Of a DNA stretch of 64,000 nucleotides, positions 22,446 through 28,055 are shown one piece after another (position 1 is the first letter of the stretch; each line of letters starts with the position of its first letter). The stretch lies in assembly GCA_964576755.1 (NCBI GenBank), contig CAZNUV010000005.1, positions 2,762 to 66,761 on the forward strand, written 5' to 3'. The position numbers were made by a program, and so were the translations under genes. The notes beneath the pieces are model-generated. The model had not been told where the DNA came from and did no database searches. It saw nothing but the letters and a program-made list of their open reading frames with translations. Origin of the DNA: Candidatus Woesearchaeota archaeon (GTDB lineage Archaea; Nanobdellota; Nanobdellia; Pacearchaeales; GW2011-AR1).

Positions 22446-22459
22446 ATAGCCCCACCAGG
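22446..22459. repeat. 14-bp copy of the tRNA-Gln 3' end (putative distal att site)
   Basis: atagccccaccagg at 22446-22459 is identical to 27775-27788. That stretch covers the T-stem 3' half, acceptor 3' strand, discriminator and one flanking base of tRNA-Gln. Confidence 0.65.
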
Positions 22460-22759
22460 GTCCTGCACCATCGTGACCGTTTCACGGGATATATTTTATT
22501 ATGTTTCGGCTTTATGTTGTCTTGAATTGGGCTTTATTTATAAATCTTGTCGAGAAGGAGTATATGCATTGAAATAGGTAGATGACTATTTCCAAACTAG
22601 AAATAAGTTAATCCATCTCTGAAGTCTTGATTTATGTTTAAGTTTCTCAATTTCTTCCTTTTGTTTTACAATTTCCTGTTCCAAGTCTTGCCTTACCATT
22701 AGCCATGTTTGAGTAATTTTATTTATAAATCTTGTCGAAATAGAATATATGGATTACTT

Positions 22760-23017
22760 TTAAGCTTCTTTATACATCCACATTAGCATAGGCATAACCT
22801 CCTCATTCTTTAGATTATTGACTTTATTTAGCAATTCTTTAAAATCTCTGCAAAAAACAAGTTTATAAGAAAAAGAAGATCTTTTTTCTTTAAGCTGAGG
22901 AAACTCATCAATTATTTCTTTTTTTAGTCTTATAACATTCCAAGACTGAAAACTTTCTGCATAAGCTATTTTTCCTTCAATATCAATTATTCTCTTTGGT
23001 GCAAGTGTTTTTTTCAT
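22760..23017 (-). CDS. Hypothetical protein (element cargo)
   Basis: 85-aa ORF with no recognisable motifs. Confidence 0.35.
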   Translation of the reverse strand: MKKTLAPKRIIDIEGKIAYAESFQSWNVIRLKKEIIDEFPQLKEKRSSFSYKLVFCRDFKELLNKVNNLKNEEVMPMLMWMYKEA

Positions 23018-23145
23018 TCATTCTCCACCACCTCACACCTCTTAAGTTATATAAATATCGATTACATTCAGCTACTTAAACAAGTTTATAAAAATTTTTG
23101 TAAATTCATGCAAAACCTTATAAATTATGCATTGTTTTACAAAAT

Positions 23146-24090
23146 ATGATAGATGAGACAGACAAGCTTATCCTCTTTGAACTACTTCAAGATTGTAGAC
23201 AGCCTCTTTCTAAAATTGCAAAGACAGTAAAACTATCTCAACAAAGAGTTCATTATAGAATAAAGAAACTTGAAGAACAAGGAGTAATAAAAAAATATAC
23301 CATTAACATTAATTATCCAAAACTAGGATATAGTAGACATTCATTATACTTAGATTTGCTAAGTGTCGACGGAAAAGAAGTTGATAAATATCTTAAACAT
23401 ATTACAGACATAAATGAAGTAAGTTGTTGTTATATGCTACATGATGTTTCAGAATGGAAAATGTATATTTCAGTATGGACAAAAAATATTGAGAGATATG
23501 ACGAGATTCAAACTAAAATAATTTCCAAGTTTCATAAACACATTAAAAATTATATTTCTTTTCAGAGTATTCGTTCGCACACTTACTTTGTTGCAAGAAT
23601 GCTCAATAGAAAAAAAGAAGCTAAATGTGATATAAAAGGAAATCCTGAAAATTTTGAATTAAAAGATATTGATTGGAAAATAATAAATAAGTTAAGAAAG
23701 AAGTCTAATATTCCTATTTTAGAATTAGCTAATTCATTAAAAGTAGATGTAAACACTATAAAAAGGAGAATTGATTTTTTACTTAAAGAAAATATTATTG
23801 AAAGATTTTATACCATTCTTGATTTAAAGAAATTAGACTTGAGAGAGTATACTTTTATTTCTAGGATAAACCCTTCACATAATCATGAAATTGAAAAATT
23901 TATAGAATATGCTAAGAAAGATTATCATTTTGGAATTATAATAAAAGCCGTAGGTTATGTTAATCTTTATTATGCTTTTTATGCTAAAGATAATGCAGAA
24001 TTAAAGTCAATAACTGCGAAAGTAGATAAGATGTTAGGTAAAGCAGTTTTACATACATATAAAATTGAAGTTGAGGATATGATTAGCTAA
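23146..24090 (+). CDS. Tandem Lrp/AsnC-type HTH transcriptional regulator
   Basis: Two copies of the Lrp/AsnC HTH pattern (DKLILFELLQDCRQPLSKIAKTVKLSQQRVHYRIKKLEEQGVIKKY and IDWKIINKLRKKSNIPILELANSLKVDVNTIKRRIDFLLKENIIERF). Each is followed by an RAM-like segment. Confidence 0.7.
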   Translation: MIDETDKLILFELLQDCRQPLSKIAKTVKLSQQRVHYRIKKLEEQGVIKKYTININYPKLGYSRHSLYLDLLSVDGKEVDKYLKHITDINEVSCCYMLHDVSEWKMYISVWTKNIERYDEIQTKIISKFHKHIKNYISFQSIRSHTYFVARMLNRKKEAKCDIKGNPENFELKDIDWKIINKLRKKSNIPILELANSLKVDVNTIKRRIDFLLKENIIERFYTILDLKKLDLREYTFISRINPSHNHEIEKFIEYAKKDYHFGIIIKAVGYVNLYYAFYAKDNAELKSITAKVDKMLGKAVLHTYKIEVEDMIS

Positions 24091-24184
24091 GAAATGAGAA
24101 TAATAATAAAATCTTATTGTGTTACCTCTTATAAGATACAACAAAAACAAAAGATTTAAATACCTTAATTTCTAAGATAAATGC

Positions 24185-24838
24185 ATGGGATTAAACTTAA
24201 ACGGAACAAGAGAACCATACAAAGAATTTTATGGTAGAAATACAGATCAAATGTCAGCTTTAATAGCTGATGCTAGAGTTCCAATGAATGTTTCTCAATT
24301 AATGCAAAAAAGACTTGATGTAAGAAATGCTGATGCAAAAGTTAAATCTGCTTGGATTGATAATTATTTTGATTCAGGAGATGCAGTTGTTTATCATCCT
24401 AACGGAGATGTAAAAGTTGTTCTTGATTCTCAAACATTAAGAGAAATGACTCCTGAAACTCAGAGAAATGGCGGAGCATTAGTTATTGGAGAAGAAGTTT
24501 ATCAAGCATTACAAGGTGAAATATTCAAGAAAGGAAAACTAGGAAAAATAAATGAATGGCTTACAAGAGCACAAGTTAAAGCTCACCCTGTTTGGAAAGT
24601 TTTAGCAAGAGGTCAAACATTACTTAATGATTATACTGATTTTACAGCTGGAGAATATCAAGCAAGATTTGCAAAAGATACACCTTTAGATGATATAACA
24701 ATAATGGGATTTTTCCCAGGTTCTTGTGGCGGAAAGTCTCCAGAAATGCGGGCGTTCTATGTCTATGGGCTTGAGTACGGGTCTGATGTCATTGGCGGGG
24801 GTGCCTTGACTGGTGGCTTGGTCGTCTTGTTGGGTTAG
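24185..24838 (+). CDS. DGR variable (target) protein, apparently truncated by a 1-nt deletion in the VR
   Basis: 217-aa ORF whose last 30 codons are the VR. No signal peptide or TM helix. A stop-free continuation in the +1 frame runs to 24996. Confidence 0.75.
   Translation: MGLNLNGTREPYKEFYGRNTDQMSALIADARVPMNVSQLMQKRLDVRNADAKVKSAWIDNYFDSGDAVVYHPNGDVKVVLDSQTLREMTPETQRNGGALVIGEEVYQALQGEIFKKGKLGKINEWLTRAQVKAHPVWKVLARGQTLLNDYTDFTAGEYQARFAKDTPLDDITIMGFFPGSCGGKSPEMRAFYVYGLEYGSDVIGGGALTGGLVVLLG
24748..24837 (+). repeat. DGR variable repeat (VR)
   Basis: Aligns with 25182-25272. Every substitution falls at a template adenine (17-18 of 26 A positions). No non-A position is substituted, and there is a single 1-nt indel. 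Confidence 0.85.
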
Positions 24839-24851
24839 CACCGGAGGTGCT
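24837..24851 (+). promoter_or_regulatory. GC-rich hairpin immediately 3' of the VR (IMH/cruciform-like)
   Basis: agcacc-gga-ggtgct forms a 6-bp stem with a 3-nt loop, inside a locally GC-rich stretch (gcaccggaggtgcttagtgcgccgggtagtggtgc). This stretch is absent downstream of the TR. Confidence 0.4.
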
Positions 24852-25181
24852 TAGTGCGCCGGGTAGTGGTGCTTCAGCAGTACAAAAATATACTATGGCA
24901 GATTTACAATCATTAGATGCAGGTATAACTAGATTAGAAGGCATTGTCTTGCCAGAATTAGTAAAACCATTTAGAGATATAAGAAAAAAACTTTAAGTCT
25001 TCTATATAAATTCTTATAAACTCTTTATTTTATTTAAAATTACCTAGCTAACTATGCAACAAGGATGCATGGAGCAGACTAGGCTACATGCTCTTTTACT
25101 AAAGCAGAAATGCTATAAAATACAGCTACAACAGAAATGAAGTGGCAATGAAGATAATTTCAAAGTAGAAGAGCTACTATG

Positions 25182-25272
25182 GCGGGCGTTCTATGTCAAT
25201 AGGCTTGAGAACAGGTCTAATGTCAATGGCAGGAATGACTTGACTAATGACAATGGTCGTCTTGTTGAATAA
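25182..25272 (+). repeat. DGR template repeat (TR)
   Basis: Intergenic copy of the VR, 23 nt upstream of the RT-like ORF. In the VR frame it reads RAFYVNRLENRSNVNGRNDLTNDNGRLVE* with seven AAY codons. Confidence 0.85.
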
Positions 25273-25295
25273 TCTAGTCTGCTGTTAGGATTAAA

Positions 25296-26522
25296 ATGTA
25301 TGAACAACTATGCTCACATGAAAATCTTTTATTAGCTTTTAAAAAAGCAAAAAAAGGAAAGACTAAGAAAGATTATATTATTAAATTTAAACGAAATTTA
25401 GAGAATAATTTAATAACTCTAAGACAGGAATTAATTTCTCAAACATATAAACCAAAACCACTTAAAACATTTATTGTTAGAGATCCAAAAACAAGAAAAA
25501 TTTCTAAATCTAAATTTAGAGATAGAATTATTCATCATGCTTTGATAAATATCATTGGAGAGAATAGCCTCAAAGATTTAATTTCTAAAATTTTAACTAA
25601 ATTAAAGGGTGATCGGGCAAGGGCTAAGATAATTGAAAAACAAATAGAATATACTGAGGATTGGAAAGAGAAAAAAGAAACCTCATTAGATCTTTTAAAT
25701 CATTTAATTGAAAAAAGCTTTATTGATAAGGAAGATATAATTAAACCCCTTGGAACATCTCAGATTTTTGCCCTCTACTGCTTTCCTACTACTCCAATCA
25801 TTTCAAAAAATGGAAAAATAAAGTATAGTTTAAATCGAAGAATTTATCCTAATTTTCTAAAAAAATTGGGTTTTATAAGATTACATCTTAGACGGGGGCT
25901 TTTTTATGTCATCCCTCGTGAAAGATTAATCCCTTCTTTACAAAATACTTTTTACTTGAAGCAGTACATTCTTGAAGAGATCGAAAAAACATTTCCAGTA
26001 GAGTGGGAACGATTTTTAAAGGAGCTTAAAAGGAAAAAAAGTCTATTAAATGAATACAATTCCTATAAAAATAAAAGTTATAAGCAGGAATTAAAATTTA
26101 ACATCTTGCTTTTGAATACAGATATCTCAGAGAATAATGTGGGGTATTTATATGGTGAAAGAACGTTTACCAATGATTTTCATAATTTTCTAAATAATCA
26201 GTTAGACTTAAAAAAATTAAATTTTCCTAGAAGTGTTAAAGCAAACATTAGCGAATATATGAAAAATATCTCTATAGTGTTTTTCTTCAAAGGAGAAAAT
26301 ACTACCAATATACAAAAGATTAATGACGTAGAACCAAAATTAAAGAGTGGGCTTTCAATAATCAAATGGACAGATTATTTGGATAAGAATCAAGAAGAAA
26401 TTGCATCTATATTTAAATTGGGTAATCTATCCGAATCTCGAGCAAAAAAATACTCAGAATTATTAATCAAAAAGATTGAAGTATATAGAAATGCCCTTAG
26501 AGAATTAAGAATTAATCTATAA
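25296..26522 (+). CDS. DGR-type reverse-transcriptase-like protein (N-terminal RT motifs present, no YxDD seen)
   Basis: Residues 1-90 match the DGR/retron-type RT N-terminus (ENLLLAFKKAKKGK...YKPKPLKTFIVRDPKTRKISKSKFRDRIIHHALINII). Later there is only faint colinearity (PLGTSQIFALY versus the canonical GxxxSQ motif). No DD pair occurs anywhere in the 408 aa. Confidence 0.65.
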   Translation: MYEQLCSHENLLLAFKKAKKGKTKKDYIIKFKRNLENNLITLRQELISQTYKPKPLKTFIVRDPKTRKISKSKFRDRIIHHALINIIGENSLKDLISKILTKLKGDRARAKIIEKQIEYTEDWKEKKETSLDLLNHLIEKSFIDKEDIIKPLGTSQIFALYCFPTTPIISKNGKIKYSLNRRIYPNFLKKLGFIRLHLRRGLFYVIPRERLIPSLQNTFYLKQYILEEIEKTFPVEWERFLKELKRKKSLLNEYNSYKNKSYKQELKFNILLLNTDISENNVGYLYGERTFTNDFHNFLNNQLDLKKLNFPRSVKANISEYMKNISIVFFFKGENTTNIQKINDVEPKLKSGLSIIKWTDYLDKNQEEIASIFKLGNLSESRAKKYSELLIKKIEVYRNALRELRINL

Positions 26523-26529
26523 AATACAT

Positions 26530-27687
26530 TTAACTTTCATTCCCCACAATCATAACACCCTTTTTAACAAGCTGGGCAATAACCTTCATCTGCTTTTCCA
26601 AAACATCAACACGTTCTTTTAAAATTTCTTTTTCATTTTCTGATCTAGCAAGTTGCTTTTCAATCTCTGTCTTTGTAACATCTACTAACATATCTTCCTC
26701 ACTAATAGTATCTCTCATGCCCAAAAACTCAGAATAATAATGAATCTCTTCTGATTTTTTCCAACCGAATCTATACTTTAAAGCAGATTCAGATTTATAC
26801 CTTGGAAGCCAATAACAGCAACTATTATGTCTAAAATCATATAAGGATAGTTTGGAATAATTTTCTCCTGCGGGACTTATTTTATCCCCAAGAACTCTCT
26901 TTGCTAATCTTTTCAAGTAGCGGTTTACAACCTGCGAACAGACGCTGAATAAATAATCACTTGATTCAAGATTTTTAGTTTTTACATACTCTTTAATAAG
27001 TTCTGAACAGAGCATTAATTTTATTCTTCTTCCAAAAGTTTTGCTCACTTCCTCTCTTATCTTTAATTCTTTGAAATCATTAAAAAAGTCTGAAACTTTA
27101 ACATTCACTAATTCTGTTGGAGACCTTATCCCTGTGTCAAATACAAACATCATCATCACCTTATATTCATGTTTCGATTCATCACATAATTTTTTCACTT
27201 CTTCTTCAGTTAAATAAACCCATTTTGGTTTTTCTGTTCTTGAATCAAGATCTAGGGTAATATCTGTAATTTCTATCTTCTGTTTTTTGCTTACTTTTTG
27301 ATGCCAGTGCCAGAATGCTTTGAAAACCTTCCCTTGAGTTTCAAGAGAGGTGTATGATTTTCCATCCACCCTCTTTATTCCCCCATTTCTCATCTCTGCA
27401 AAGAAAGTAATAATCTGATCTTCATTAACTTCTGTTAGCTTAATTACTCCATAAAATTCCTCAAATTTTTTAGCAAAGAATATCATCTTCTCCTTTAATG
27501 TAAAAAGTCTAGCAAAAGTTCTTGGACCCCTTAAACTCCCTGTTGCTATATTCAAACCTTTTTCCATATCATTAAGATATCTTAGAATTATTTCAGAATT
27601 CTCTACAGAAATATCTGGAATTCTATCTTTAACTCTTTCTTTCCATTTAAGGTATCTTTCTTTATGTTTCCACGGATCTATTTTCAT
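26530..27687 (-). CDS. Tyrosine recombinase / integrase
   Basis: Catalytic-domain pattern: FDTGIRSPTEL (Arg I), LYDFRHNSCCY (box II Arg-His), and FGW...IHYYSEF (GH/W...Y). Has a coiled-coil C-terminal tail. Sits next to the tRNA-Gln att site. Confidence 0.75.
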   Translation of the reverse strand: MKIDPWKHKERYLKWKERVKDRIPDISVENSEIILRYLNDMEKGLNIATGSLRGPRTFARLFTLKEKMIFFAKKFEEFYGVIKLTEVNEDQIITFFAEMRNGGIKRVDGKSYTSLETQGKVFKAFWHWHQKVSKKQKIEITDITLDLDSRTEKPKWVYLTEEEVKKLCDESKHEYKVMMMFVFDTGIRSPTELVNVKVSDFFNDFKELKIREEVSKTFGRRIKLMLCSELIKEYVKTKNLESSDYLFSVCSQVVNRYLKRLAKRVLGDKISPAGENYSKLSLYDFRHNSCCYWLPRYKSESALKYRFGWKKSEEIHYYSEFLGMRDTISEEDMLVDVTKTEIEKQLARSENEKEILKERVDVLEKQMKVIAQLVKKGVMIVGNES

Positions 27688-27775
27688 CTTAGCATAAAAC
27701 CCACCTGATTTATATTTTCGTGGCGGATTTATGCCGAAACAAACCTGAACCCTTGATTTTGGTCAAAAGGGTAAA

Positions 27776-27848
27776 TAGCCCCACCAGGATTCGAACCTGG
27801 GTCACAAGGTTCAGAACCTCGTATGCTTGACCACTACACTATGGGGCT
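27776..27848 (-). tRNA. tRNA-Gln (CTG)
   Basis: Minus-strand cloverleaf. Acceptor AGCCCCA/TGGGGCT (the A1-U72 pair is typical of archaeal tRNA-Gln), anticodon stem CGAGG/CCTTG with loop TTCTGAA, T-arm CCAGG-TTCGAAT-CCTGG. Confidence 0.85.
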
Positions 27849-27863
27849 ATAAGACAACCTAAC

Positions 27864-27983
27864 GGTTTTCTTATGAACTTTCCCTTGAGATTGCCTGATT
27901 GACAACTAAGGTTTTCTTATGAACTTTCCCTTGAGATTGCCTGATTGACAAATAAGGTTTTCTTATGAACTTTCCCTTGAGAT
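27864..27983. repeat. 46-bp tandem repeat, about 2.6 copies, upstream of tRNA-Gln
   Basis: Copies start at 27864, 27910 and 27956 (ggttttcttatgaactttcccttgagattgcctgattgacaa[c/a]taa). The two full copies differ at one base. The third diverges after gagat. Confidence 0.85.
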
Positions 27984-28055
27984 AGTCCAACAACCTTAGA
28001 TTTATAAAAAATCAGGTAAAGCAAACTTTATAAAGCTATTTTTTGATATTCTCAT

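Follow-up and report, generated by a model that had tools for sequence, protein, structure and literature searches.

Genes and features around the tRNA-Gln gene

The locus lies within a 64,000-nt stretch of DNA from a Candidatus Woesearchaeota archaeon, referred to here as the window. It comprises a target gene with a variable repeat (VR), an RNA motif followed by a template repeat (TR), the 5' part of a reverse transcriptase (RT) gene of the kind found in diversity-generating retroelements (DGRs), a partial gene of another family (family X), and a tyrosine integrase gene next to a tRNA-Gln(CTG) gene (Table 1).

Table 1. Features of the locus, with positions in the window
Feature	Position	Strand	Details
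Candidate distal att repeat, ATAGCCCCACCAGG	22446..22459		Identical to the tRNA-Gln 3' end plus 2 nt (27774-27788)
85-aa ORF	22760..23017	-	tblastn matches at three sites of locus L012 (42-50% identity, E 1e-13 to 1e-20)
Double winged-helix Lrp/AsnC-type regulator	23146..24090	+	Directly upstream of the target gene; Pfam HTH_24, HTH_AsnC-type
DGR target gene, now a pseudogene	24185..24996	+	Family match after repair
VR	24748..24837	+	90 nt; aligns with the TR
One-base deletion in the VR	24817..24818	+	Opposite TR 25252/25253, inside an AAT codon; -1 frameshift
Hairpin 3' of the VR	24837..24851	+	AGCACC-GGA-GGTGCT; 6-bp stem, GRA triloop; DNA fold
RT-16 RNA motif (Rfam RF03019)	25043..25182	+	65.6 bits against a gathering score of 50; full length of the model
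TR	25182..25272	+	Non-coding; 91 nt with 26 A and 65 non-A; homologous to TRs of intact relatives
DGR RT remnant	25296..25559	+	Codons 1-88/89 only; 74-83% identical to the N-termini of RTs of 340-560 aa
Family X C-terminal part	25560..26522	+	320 codons; fused in frame to the RT remnant; no Pfam match
Tyrosine recombinase/integrase	26530..27687	-	PF00589 (E = 8.5e-9); XerA-like; phrog_1 integrase
tRNA-Gln(CTG)	27775..27849	-	ARAGORN and Rfam

The tRNA-Gln(CTG) gene anchors the locus and is its probable integration target. The integrase gene lies 88 nt from it, and the same tRNA gene adjoins a DGR or a target gene in three related loci (L069, L070 and L058). A directed search returned a 14-nt exact direct repeat as a distal att candidate. 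Considering that its E value is borderline (0.06) and that no counterpart was found in L069 or L070, the boundary of the island is put forward as a candidate only. A clearer case is locus L050, where a tRNA-Gly gene, an integrase gene and a DGR are followed by a 13-nt repeat of the tRNA end directly after the RT gene; this minimal island consists of the integrase, two targets and the RT, and no more. Integrase homologues with 59-60% identity to that of the window adjoin DGRs and tRNA genes in L050 and L037. More generally, the DGRs of this clade may travel with tRNA-targeting integrases.

Upstream of the target gene, the regulator has a homologue in the same position in locus L008. Small ORFs related to the 85-aa ORF lie ahead of the target genes in L012, a locus with an intact DGR, and judging from this homology the ORF may be associated with the cassette. 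PHROGs recognised the integrase and the regulator only, and scans of IMG/VR returned no viral relatives of the target family or of the integrase; a provirus reading is therefore unsupported. None of the six neighbouring ORFs matched Avd or HRDC, and no ORF lies between the target gene and the TR. As DGR architectures without Avd are known (PMC5758913), its absence is not disqualifying.

Adenine-restricted divergence of the two repeats

The initial annotation described two repeats of ~90 bp that differ at template adenines alone, and pairwise alignment reproduced this pattern. All 17 substitutions between TR and VR lie opposite TR adenines (11 A>G, 5 A>T and 1 A>C), at TR positions 25198, 25201, 25210, 25213, 25219, 25226, 25231, 25234, 25235, 25238, 25246, 25247, 25250, 25253, 25268, 25269 and 25271. 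One further TR adenine, 25252 or 25253, is deleted in the VR. Tabulated by template base, the alignment thus holds 17 substitutions and one deletion at adenines and none at the other positions (0/65), and the restriction of substitutions to adenines (17/26 against 0/65) is highly significant (p = 2.7e-12, Fisher's exact test). A blastn search within the window recovered the repeat pair with E = 2e-19 and no third copy. The TR is intergenic, ends in an in-frame stop and, read in the frame of the target gene, contains seven AAY codons; the translations of both repeats quoted at the outset were correct in this and in all other respects. The VR occupies codons 189-218 of the 270-codon target gene, in its 3' part, a position that coincides with the hypervariable columns of the target family alignment.

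The RT-16 motif immediately precedes the TR and has the orientation of the target gene. In the window and in 19 of 19 related loci with a TR, the motif ends at the TR start or within a few nucleotides of it, and this arrangement holds in the 20 loci examined whichever way the RT gene points. On this comparative basis, we interpret RT-16 as the structured leader at the 5' end of the template RNA. Weinberg et al. (2017, PMC5737381) located the motifs RT-1 to RT-19 near RT genes and assigned RT-10 to the DGR of Bordetella phage BPP-1; RT-16 was stated only to lie near RT genes, whereas here it stands directly 5' of a DGR TR in 20/20 loci. At the other end of the system, the VR closes with an IMH-like motif, TTGGGTT in the VR against TTGAATA (IMH*-like) in the TR, which precedes the hairpin. 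Almost all of the 19 related loci carry the hairpin AGCGCC-GGA-GGCGCT after the VR, and the stems of the window and L050 hairpins show compensatory changes.

In principle, the two repeats could be an ordinary duplication that diverged by chance or through some other adenine-specific process and so came to mimic a DGR. Beyond the missing working RT, we found nothing in favour of this explanation. The restriction to adenines on one strand and in one copy alone (p = 2.7e-12) speaks against it, as do the many relatives that combine the same TR/VR layout, RT-16 leader and hairpin with full-length DGR-type RTs carrying the LGNLTSQ motif. We regard it as extremely improbable and as effectively refuted already by these sequence comparisons. 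The original DGR call was right: the repeats diverge at adenines only, the TR is non-coding, the VR lies in a family diversified by DGRs, and an IMH-like end, a hairpin and RT-16 are all in place.

The layout shares several features with known systems. Like the DGR of BPP-1 (mtd/avd/TR/brt), it shows A-to-N changes that pass only from TR to VR, a TR that contains AAY codons and lies immediately upstream of the RT gene, and a VR close to the 3' end of the target gene, with a hairpin after its IMH-like end. Unlike in BPP-1, avd is absent, the RT is truncated, the hairpin loop has 3 nt and a conserved tail of 55 residues follows the VR; the conserved RNA element lies 5' of the TR here (RT-16), whereas in BPP-1 the spacer/RT-10 region lies 3' of it. 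The DUSEL4 Nanoarchaeota DGRs, with their TGGGGT/TGGAAT IMH and GRA-loop hairpins (Paul et al. 2015, Nat Commun, PMC4372165), resemble the window in their DPANN archaeal host, an orphan target with the VR inside the gene, the lack of an obvious Avd gene, an IMH/IMH* pair of the TGGGGT/TGGAAT type and a GRA-loop hairpin inside the target gene.

Lesions in the RT gene and in the target gene

The ORF at 25296-26522, which starts 23 nt downstream of the TR, had been taken as an adjacent RT-type gene. This held for residues 1-89, which are RT-like; the remainder of the 408 codons belongs to an unrelated protein, and the ORF is an in-frame chimera of RT(1-89) and family X with no polymerase domain. 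TIGR04416 matches it at residues 9-87 only. The RTs that the remnant matches carry PF00078, with or without PF14493, and in the RTs of relatives RVT_1 spans residues 65-273, with the LGNLTSQ and YVDD motifs beyond residue 180. No RT catalytic domain was found in the 64-kb window, with no RVT_1 match, no YxDD in six frames and no RT by tblastn. We also considered that the 3' part of the RT gene might persist beyond the inserted element, and rejected this: tblastn found no RT piece in the window, and the integrase and RFC genes are separated by 550 nt that contain the tRNA-Gln gene, tandem 46-nt repeats and nothing else.

Chimera residues 89-408 match the family X proteins P0002-P0008, with 68% identity to residues 57-376 of P0002 and 43% to P0007. 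Full-length members carry an N-terminal membrane segment that is absent from the chimera. Family X is a mobile-element protein unrelated to RT, and it forms a module with the integrase elsewhere: in locus L018, a full-length family X gene and the gene of a 68%-identical integrase homologue are convergent. The breakpoint can be placed at 25559/25560. DNA homology to the sister locus L069 ends at 25559. Both L069 and L070, which sit at the same tRNA, are homologous to the window up to this position, beyond which the remainder of the RT gene runs straight to the tRNA. In these two sister loci the RT is of full length and is split only at a poly-G tract, which is also present in the intact relative L027. 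As the chimera is still open over 408 codons in a genome of ~28% GC, either the fusion is very recent or the family X part is still under selection.

The target gene is also disrupted. The VR interval assigned to the last 30 codons of a coding sequence at 24185..24838 was correct, but the stop at 24838 does not mark where the gene naturally ends; it arises because one base is missing from the VR, and the true gene is 24185-24996. The ORF 24185-24838 encodes 217 aa, and the rest of the gene follows in the -1 frame up to the stop at 24996. Reinsertion of one base gives a product of 270 aa that matches more than 100 proteins of 260-275 aa with 57-68% identity over 100% of its length. Family members of ~265 aa share the motif RAW-x(22-24)-GRLVGIAPEALS, which is present in the repaired target, and a tblastn search of the target against the window returned two HSPs in different frames. 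The CGG and GGT codons lie 72 nt apart in the TR and 71 nt apart in the VR, and the TR measures 89 nt between its end motifs, equal to the 89-nt TRs of L010 and L027. Downstream of the frameshift lie the residues G213, R214, G217 and A219, which are invariant in the family alignment; the frameshift diverts the target from the invariant motif GR-x-x-G-x-AP and from the conserved 55-residue tail.

Single-base deletions in DGR cDNA are rare and documented at about 0.1% (PMC6182149). The loss of an adenine was considered as proof of an RT error and rejected as unprovable: 26 of the 91 TR positions (29%) are A, and a deletion that falls on one is not significant by itself.

We compared six contigs from different samples and assemblers, namely ENA contigs (MEGAHIT k141, three samples), JGI contigs (two samples) and a Logan contig (one run). 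The source samples include SRR8437287, those behind ERZ27248937/895/920, and JGI 3300028168 and 3300028191. All six carry the identical VR, frameshift, TR and chimera; the deletion was found in every assembly covering the site, and contigs of 2-202 kb read through the 25559/25560 junction. If the broken state were an artefact, a chimeric assembly of RT and family X would have to coincide with a consensus miscall of one base in a VR that is heterogeneous and rich in GC. Assemblers are known to struggle with VRs, and the short contigs do break near the VR. However, the ENA, JGI and Logan contigs agree fully at the junction, at the deletion and in all flanks, the fusion is in frame, and both of its sides have independent homologues. 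An artefact is, in our estimate, very unlikely.

Sequence searches against the PDB, with the single target sequence and with a family profile, gave nothing meaningful. For the family member P0123, the AlphaFold model has a mean pLDDT of 56, falling below 50 over the VR. The top Foldseek match of this low-confidence model was 5ioo_A (AvpA; prob 0.87, E = 0.1, TM 0.26-0.33, 110 aligned columns). AvpA, the variable protein of a Nanoarchaeota DGR with a C-type lectin fold (PDB 5IOO, Handa et al. 2016), was the sole notable structural match, a weak one, and has no detectable sequence similarity to the target family. This model-based hint makes a C-type lectin fold for the family a possible lead rather than a result.

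Past activity, present state and related loci

With its RT cut and its target frameshifted, the cassette is best described as a fresh fossil and not as a working mutator. We consider it probable (about 0.8) that it is a recently working, now disabled member of the DGR clade of Nanoarchaeota, Pacearchaeota and Woesearchaeota. The sequence is an imprint of past mutagenic retrohoming and not a demonstrably active DGR. The possibility of a fossil had been raised as a caveat in the initial annotation; the RT cut after 89 codons and the VR frameshift in six assemblies make it the better reading.

By analogy with the family and the BPP-1 paradigm, an RNA of RT-16 leader and TR would have been reverse-transcribed by the RT encoded downstream, with misincorporation opposite adenines. 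The cDNA would then have replaced the VR of the upstream target gene, guided by the IMH-like end and the GGA-loop hairpin 3' of the VR. The last homing event wrote the present VR, in which 18 of the 26 template adenines are altered and all other bases are faithful. Two lesions now block the cycle. A rearrangement tied to a tyrosine-integrase element at the tRNA-Gln gene replaced RT codons 90 to the end, together with the spacer to the tRNA, by a 5'-truncated mobile-element gene and the integrase gene. The other lesion is the base missing at a template AAT codon, which puts the target out of frame. This deletion may have been an error made by the RT in the last homing or a later spontaneous mutation, and either way it could not be overwritten after the RT had been lost.

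A competing reading holds that the cassette is still active, that an RT of the clade elsewhere in the genome serves RT-16 and TR in trans, and that the frameshift is a transient, DGR-made error. The RT search covered 64 kb, whereas the contig measures at least 202 kb and the genome is larger still, and an RT elsewhere is possible; DPANN genomes can carry four or more DGRs, RT-less 'partial DGRs' that may be served remotely have been discussed for Nanoarchaeota (PMC4372165), and several MAGs in our comparison hold more than one locus of the target family. None of the cis elements is damaged (RT-16, with 65.6 bits, TR, IMH-like end and hairpin), and TR and VR differ at no non-A position. Yet no RT was found in the 64 kb, and six assemblies share one consensus VR that is out of frame, although an active system under selection would be expected to overwrite it. 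In addition, RT-less relatives that keep a TR accumulate non-A mismatches, so service in trans is not the rule in this family.

Population data bear on the same question. The four short contigs (four/four) end within about 120 nt of the VR. This clustering of contig ends would fit continued activity, since minor VR alleles could break the assembly graph. Against this, a scan of the JGI metagenome contigs, which are consensus sequences, with the A-to-N pattern of the TR returned only the known contig and no variant VR, and the target's protein cluster contains only one sequence. The samples appear to share one ecosystem, and with 3 SNPs in 9.8 kb their population is close to clonal, so the lack of variation in the consensus VR is weak evidence that the system is inactive. 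On balance, we judge continued activity in trans unlikely. The wider proposal that a trans-served TR inflicted the -1 error on its own VR, and that the DGRs of this clade are cargo of tRNA islands with an RT toggled by the poly-G tract, seems similarly doubtful.

Comparison with related loci supports a recently disabled DGR. Ten loci whose RT is full-length show 0-2 non-A mismatches between TR and VR, loci that keep a TR next to an RT remnant or after RT loss have 2, 8 and 10 (L023, L038 and L008), and about 25 loci have neither RT nor TR within up to 8 kb per side. The relatives form a decay series, and its 0 non-A mismatches place the window at the start of it. This series shows how a DGR dies in DPANN archaea: the RT is lost first, TR and VR then diverge, the TR disappears, and in most cases the target persists.

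On its own, the window adds a further archaeal DGR of a known clade, in a broken state. The RT-less fragments of DUSEL4 have been described as fossils or remote targets. Those partial DGRs consist of target, VR and cis elements only, whereas the window also keeps the TR, the RNA leader and 89 RT codons, which makes both the breakpoint and its cause, an integrase-linked rearrangement, visible; its VR, unlike theirs, is frameshifted. The value of the locus is that of a dated snapshot, in which the RT has been lost and the target has shifted out of frame while TR and VR still show zero non-adenine differences. The A-only signature outlives the enzyme, and scans based on TR and VR alone will therefore call dead cassettes active.

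Three leads are worth more than the finding itself, namely the role of the RT-16 leader, the travel with tRNA integrases and the poly-G tract of the RT genes. This tract, which may toggle the reading frame, occurs in many RT genes of the clade.

A template/variable pair and a frameshifted target gene

Local alignment of TR (91 nt; 26 adenines and 65 other bases) with VR (90 nt) returned a single clean block. All 17 substitutions in VR fall at TR adenines (11 A>G, 5 A>T and 1 A>C), and VR also lacks one adenine of a TR adenine pair, while 0 of the 65 non-adenine positions differ (Fisher p = 2.7e-12). Within the window, blastn recovered the repeat with E = 2e-19 and found no third copy. The initial annotation had claimed such an A-only divergence, and tabulating the pairwise mismatches by template base bore this out, with none at non-A positions; its translations of both copies and its seven AAY codons in TR were likewise correct on re-translation. 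The two repeats are a true template/variable pair of a DGR, and the archaeal clade to which it belongs is already known.

From the CGG codon at the start of VR to the GGT CGT CTT GTT block, TR has 72 nt and VR 71 nt, so that the reading frame slips by one base. Since TR measures 89 nt from end motif to end motif, as do the TRs of two related loci (L010 and L027; 89 nt), the deletion lies in VR. Restoring one base joins two ORFs into a 270-aa protein that has more than 100 database matches of 260-275 aa, with 57-68% identity over 100% of its length. VR is the only hypervariable stretch of the family alignment; 3' of it, G213, R214, G217, A219, P220, E221 and other residues are invariant or nearly so, and a conserved tail of ~50-55 residues follows. 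In the present sequence, the conserved residues and the tail past VR are all out of frame.

The target protein is the only member of its 90% protein cluster, and it gave no sequence match in Pfam, PHROG or PDB. For a family member (P0123), AlphaFold gave a model of low quality (mean pLDDT 56, below 50 over VR), whose sole notable Foldseek match was AvpA (5ioo_A; E = 0.1, probability 0.87), the variable protein of a Nanoarchaeota DGR, which has a C-type lectin fold. Judging from this model, a C-type lectin-like display of VR by the target protein would be plausible.

Features of the probably disabled cassette and its surroundings
Feature	Position	Strand	Remark
tRNA/integrase-linked locus	22446-27849
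38-nt direct repeat pair	22533-22570 and 22718-22755		87% identical, 185 nt apart
ORF related to a 64-aa ORF of L012	22760-23017	minus
Target ORF, first part	24185-24838
VR	24748-24837
Frame slip	24817/24818
Hairpin	24837-24851		directly 3' of VR
Target ORF, second part	24847-24996
RT-16 (RF03019) match	25043-25182
TR	25182-25272
Adenine pair, one missing in VR	25252/25253
RT(1-89)::X chimera	25296-26522
Breakpoint	25559/25560		resolved to a few bases
Tyrosine integrase gene	26530-27687	minus	downstream of chimera
Copy of a motif of the 46-nt unit	27325		within integrase gene
tRNA-Gln(CTG)	27775-27849	minus	downstream of chimera
46-nt tandem array	27864-28001		5' side of tRNA-Gln

A chimeric reverse transcriptase gene at tRNA-Gln

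The ORF next to TR had been taken for an RT gene, which applies to residues 1-89 alone; the remainder belongs to family X, a mobile-element protein family. Pfam found no RVT_1 domain in the ORF, and only residues 9-87 align, to the start of the group II/DGR-type RT model of NCBIfam. Its database relatives split into two disjoint sets. Over residues 1-89, the ORF shares 74-83% identity with the N-termini of 340- to 560-aa Pacearchaeota/Nanoarchaeota RTs, which have PF00078, in some cases together with PF14493. Over residues 89-408, it shares 43-68% identity with the last 320 residues of family X (376-409 aa), which has no Pfam match. The relatives' RTs have RVT_1 at residues 65-273, with LGNLTSQ and the catalytic YVDD beyond residue 180, all of which the window lacks. 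The LGNLTSQ motif is typical of DGRs. YxDD in an RT context is absent from all six frames of the window, and tblastn detected no other RT segment in the 64 kb. The assignment to the DGR class was right, but the functioning cassette that it implied finds no support, the RT being truncated and VR frameshifted.

The site of the break was located with two sister loci (L069 and L070, from sample series whose accession numbers are neighbours), which carry an orthologous DGR at the same tRNA-Gln(CTG). Their DNA is homologous to the window across the target gene, RT-16, TR and the RT as far as 25559, which sets the breakpoint. Past the equivalent position they continue with the remaining RT, a spacer of ~270 nt and the tRNA; in the window, the family X part (X') and the integrase gene replace the RT remainder and the spacer. 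Another locus (L018) has an integrase gene 68% identical to that of the window, in convergent orientation with a family X gene of full length, indicating that X and the integrase form a module. The RT was broken by a rearrangement linked to the integrase element at tRNA-Gln, which could have taken the route of integration followed by deletion or of a single illegitimate event. Six assemblies carry the chimera in identical form, as an open frame of 408 codons in DNA of ~28% GC. Either the fusion happened very recently, or selection still acts on the soluble part of X; in the latter case, the X part without its N-terminal membrane segment would be expressed from the RT start codon.

In 9 of 17 clade RT genes (L027, L034, L037, L044, L050, L051, L056, L069 and L070), a run of G8-G11 occurs at the same position (~nt 520-535), just upstream of KGMPLGNLTSQ; the window does not carry the tract. 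The poly-G-bearing genes have a GC content of only 26-34%. At the tract, the frame is lost in five of these nine, with shifts of +1 as well as +2, compared with 0/8 at the same position in genes without it. In the out-of-frame copies that were checked, VR/TR mismatches are still at A alone, and G8 was seen alike in two independent assemblies (L070 and L071). This pattern resembles on/off switching of the RT by strand slippage, or else an assembly error at the homopolymer. A search of a paper library found no account of the tract in these RT genes.

Cis elements and the order of events

The RT-16 match (65.6 bits; Rfam gathering score 50) ends exactly at the start of TR. The motif likewise stops at the TR start, or no more than a few nt from it, in 19/19 related loci with a TR (20/20 including the window), and in all 20 RT-16 lies on the target-gene strand, irrespective of which strand holds the RT gene. 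Given this constant abutment, RT-16 seems to serve the DGRs of this clade as the 5' leader of their template RNA. For RT-1 to RT-19, Weinberg et al. 2017 reported an association with RTs and nothing more, and they attributed RT-10 to the BPP-1 DGR (PMC5737381); a leader role for RT-16 was not assigned in the original description.

VR ends in TTGGGTT and TR in TTGAATA, matching the TGGGGT/TGGAAT IMH pair of Nanoarchaeota DGRs, and the hairpin 3' of VR (AGCACC-GGA-GGTGCT) matches the GRA-triloop hairpins within their target genes (Paul et al. 2015, PMC4372165). Relatives have AGCGCC-GGA-GGCGCT, with an AGA loop in L027 and L030, and compensatory stem changes occur in the window and in L050. In the window, the double change from GCGCC/GGCGC to GCACC/GGTGC also alters the encoded residue (APEA to APEV), which points to selection acting on the structure of the DNA or RNA as such. 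RT-16, TR, the IMH-like end and the hairpin are all intact and clade-typical.

The A-only imprint, the RT truncation with its breakpoint, the frameshift and the integrity of the cis elements are seen in the sequence itself. Following the family and the BPP-1 paradigm, RT-16 and TR would have formed the template RNA, cDNA carrying misincorporated bases opposite A would have replaced VR, and the IMH-like end and hairpin would have guided the replacement. The missing base of VR may be an RT error in the last homing event; bRT-Avd cDNA shows single-base deletions at ~0.1% (PMC6182149), and template slippage is discussed in PMC12875486. It may instead be a later spontaneous deletion, and its adenine position is not decisive because 26/91 TR positions are A. 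Whichever its origin, the frameshift cannot be overwritten in the absence of an RT.

Population, decay series and possible integrase islands

VR with its deletion, TR and the chimera were identical in six consensus contigs (three ENA samples, two JGI samples and one Logan run) produced by different assemblers. Such identity shows that the lesions are real and represent the dominant genotype. One of the compared contigs (L002) has 3 SNPs in 9.8 kb; with a population this close to clonal, the invariant consensus VR argues only modestly for inactivity. No alternative VR allele turned up when metagenome contigs were scanned with the TR sequence, N standing in for each A. The left ends of all four short contigs that carry the chimera (L003-L006) correspond to window positions 24629, 24775, 24802 and 24894, all within ~120 nt of VR, and two of the four break off inside it. 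Repeat collapse is an unlikely cause of these ends, since the longest exact stretch common to TR and VR is 16 nt; possibly, minor VR alleles split the assembly graph, which would speak against inactivity.

The comparison covered metagenome loci and 48 genome loci of the target family, the latter exclusively from MAGs of Nano-, Pace- or Woesearchaeota. At the ten loci where the RT is full-length, TR and VR differ at 9-17 A positions and at 0-2 non-A positions. Where TR is retained with an RT remnant or no RT, non-A mismatches number 2 (L023), 8 (L038) and 10 (L008); a short contig in which the RT tail alone was detected (L035) has 0. At L008 (L008/L009), RT residues 417-468 are all that remains, beside a tRNA, and at L038 the RT is absent. 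About 25 loci have neither TR nor RT (up to 8 kb per side covered), with the target gene usually intact. An orthologous tRNA-Gln locus in a related MAG (L058) has an intact target and an integrase remnant; TR and RT are both absent at that locus. RT loss recurs in the family, target genes usually outlasting the DGR, and RT-less "partial DGRs" were already noted as fossils or remote targets (Paul et al. 2015). The window retains an RT stub and an intact TR, with no non-A difference between TR and VR, and marks the very start of this decay path. The cassette has probably been caught shortly after its inactivation.

An intact DGR at L012:4530-8643 has one TR and two target genes flanking the RT gene. 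The two targets are near-identical up to VR and differ in their C-terminal tails, and the same 64-aa ORF, related to one in the window, lies ahead of each.

Cassettes of the clade repeatedly adjoin a tRNA gene together with the gene of a homologous tyrosine integrase (59-60% identity), as at L050:5671-10499, L037:2079-8629, L058:8001-11274 and in the window. The order at L050 is tRNA-Gly, integrase, two target genes, RT-16/TR and RT, with a 13-nt repeat of the tRNA 3' end immediately past the RT, which suggests a ~4.8-kb integrative island with the DGR as cargo. Such tRNA-targeting integrase islands, RT-16 as TR leader and the frame-toggling poly-G tract may merit follow-up.

Near tRNA-Gln, a 46-nt unit is repeated three times in tandem (100%, 98% and 72% identical). 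The array is one unit shorter in L001, L002 differs in this stretch, and L003 and L004 end there. A short motif of the unit, AACTTTCCCTTGAG, is found again within the integrase gene. The 38-nt direct repeats lie in a non-coding stretch between a candidate att site and a small ORF.
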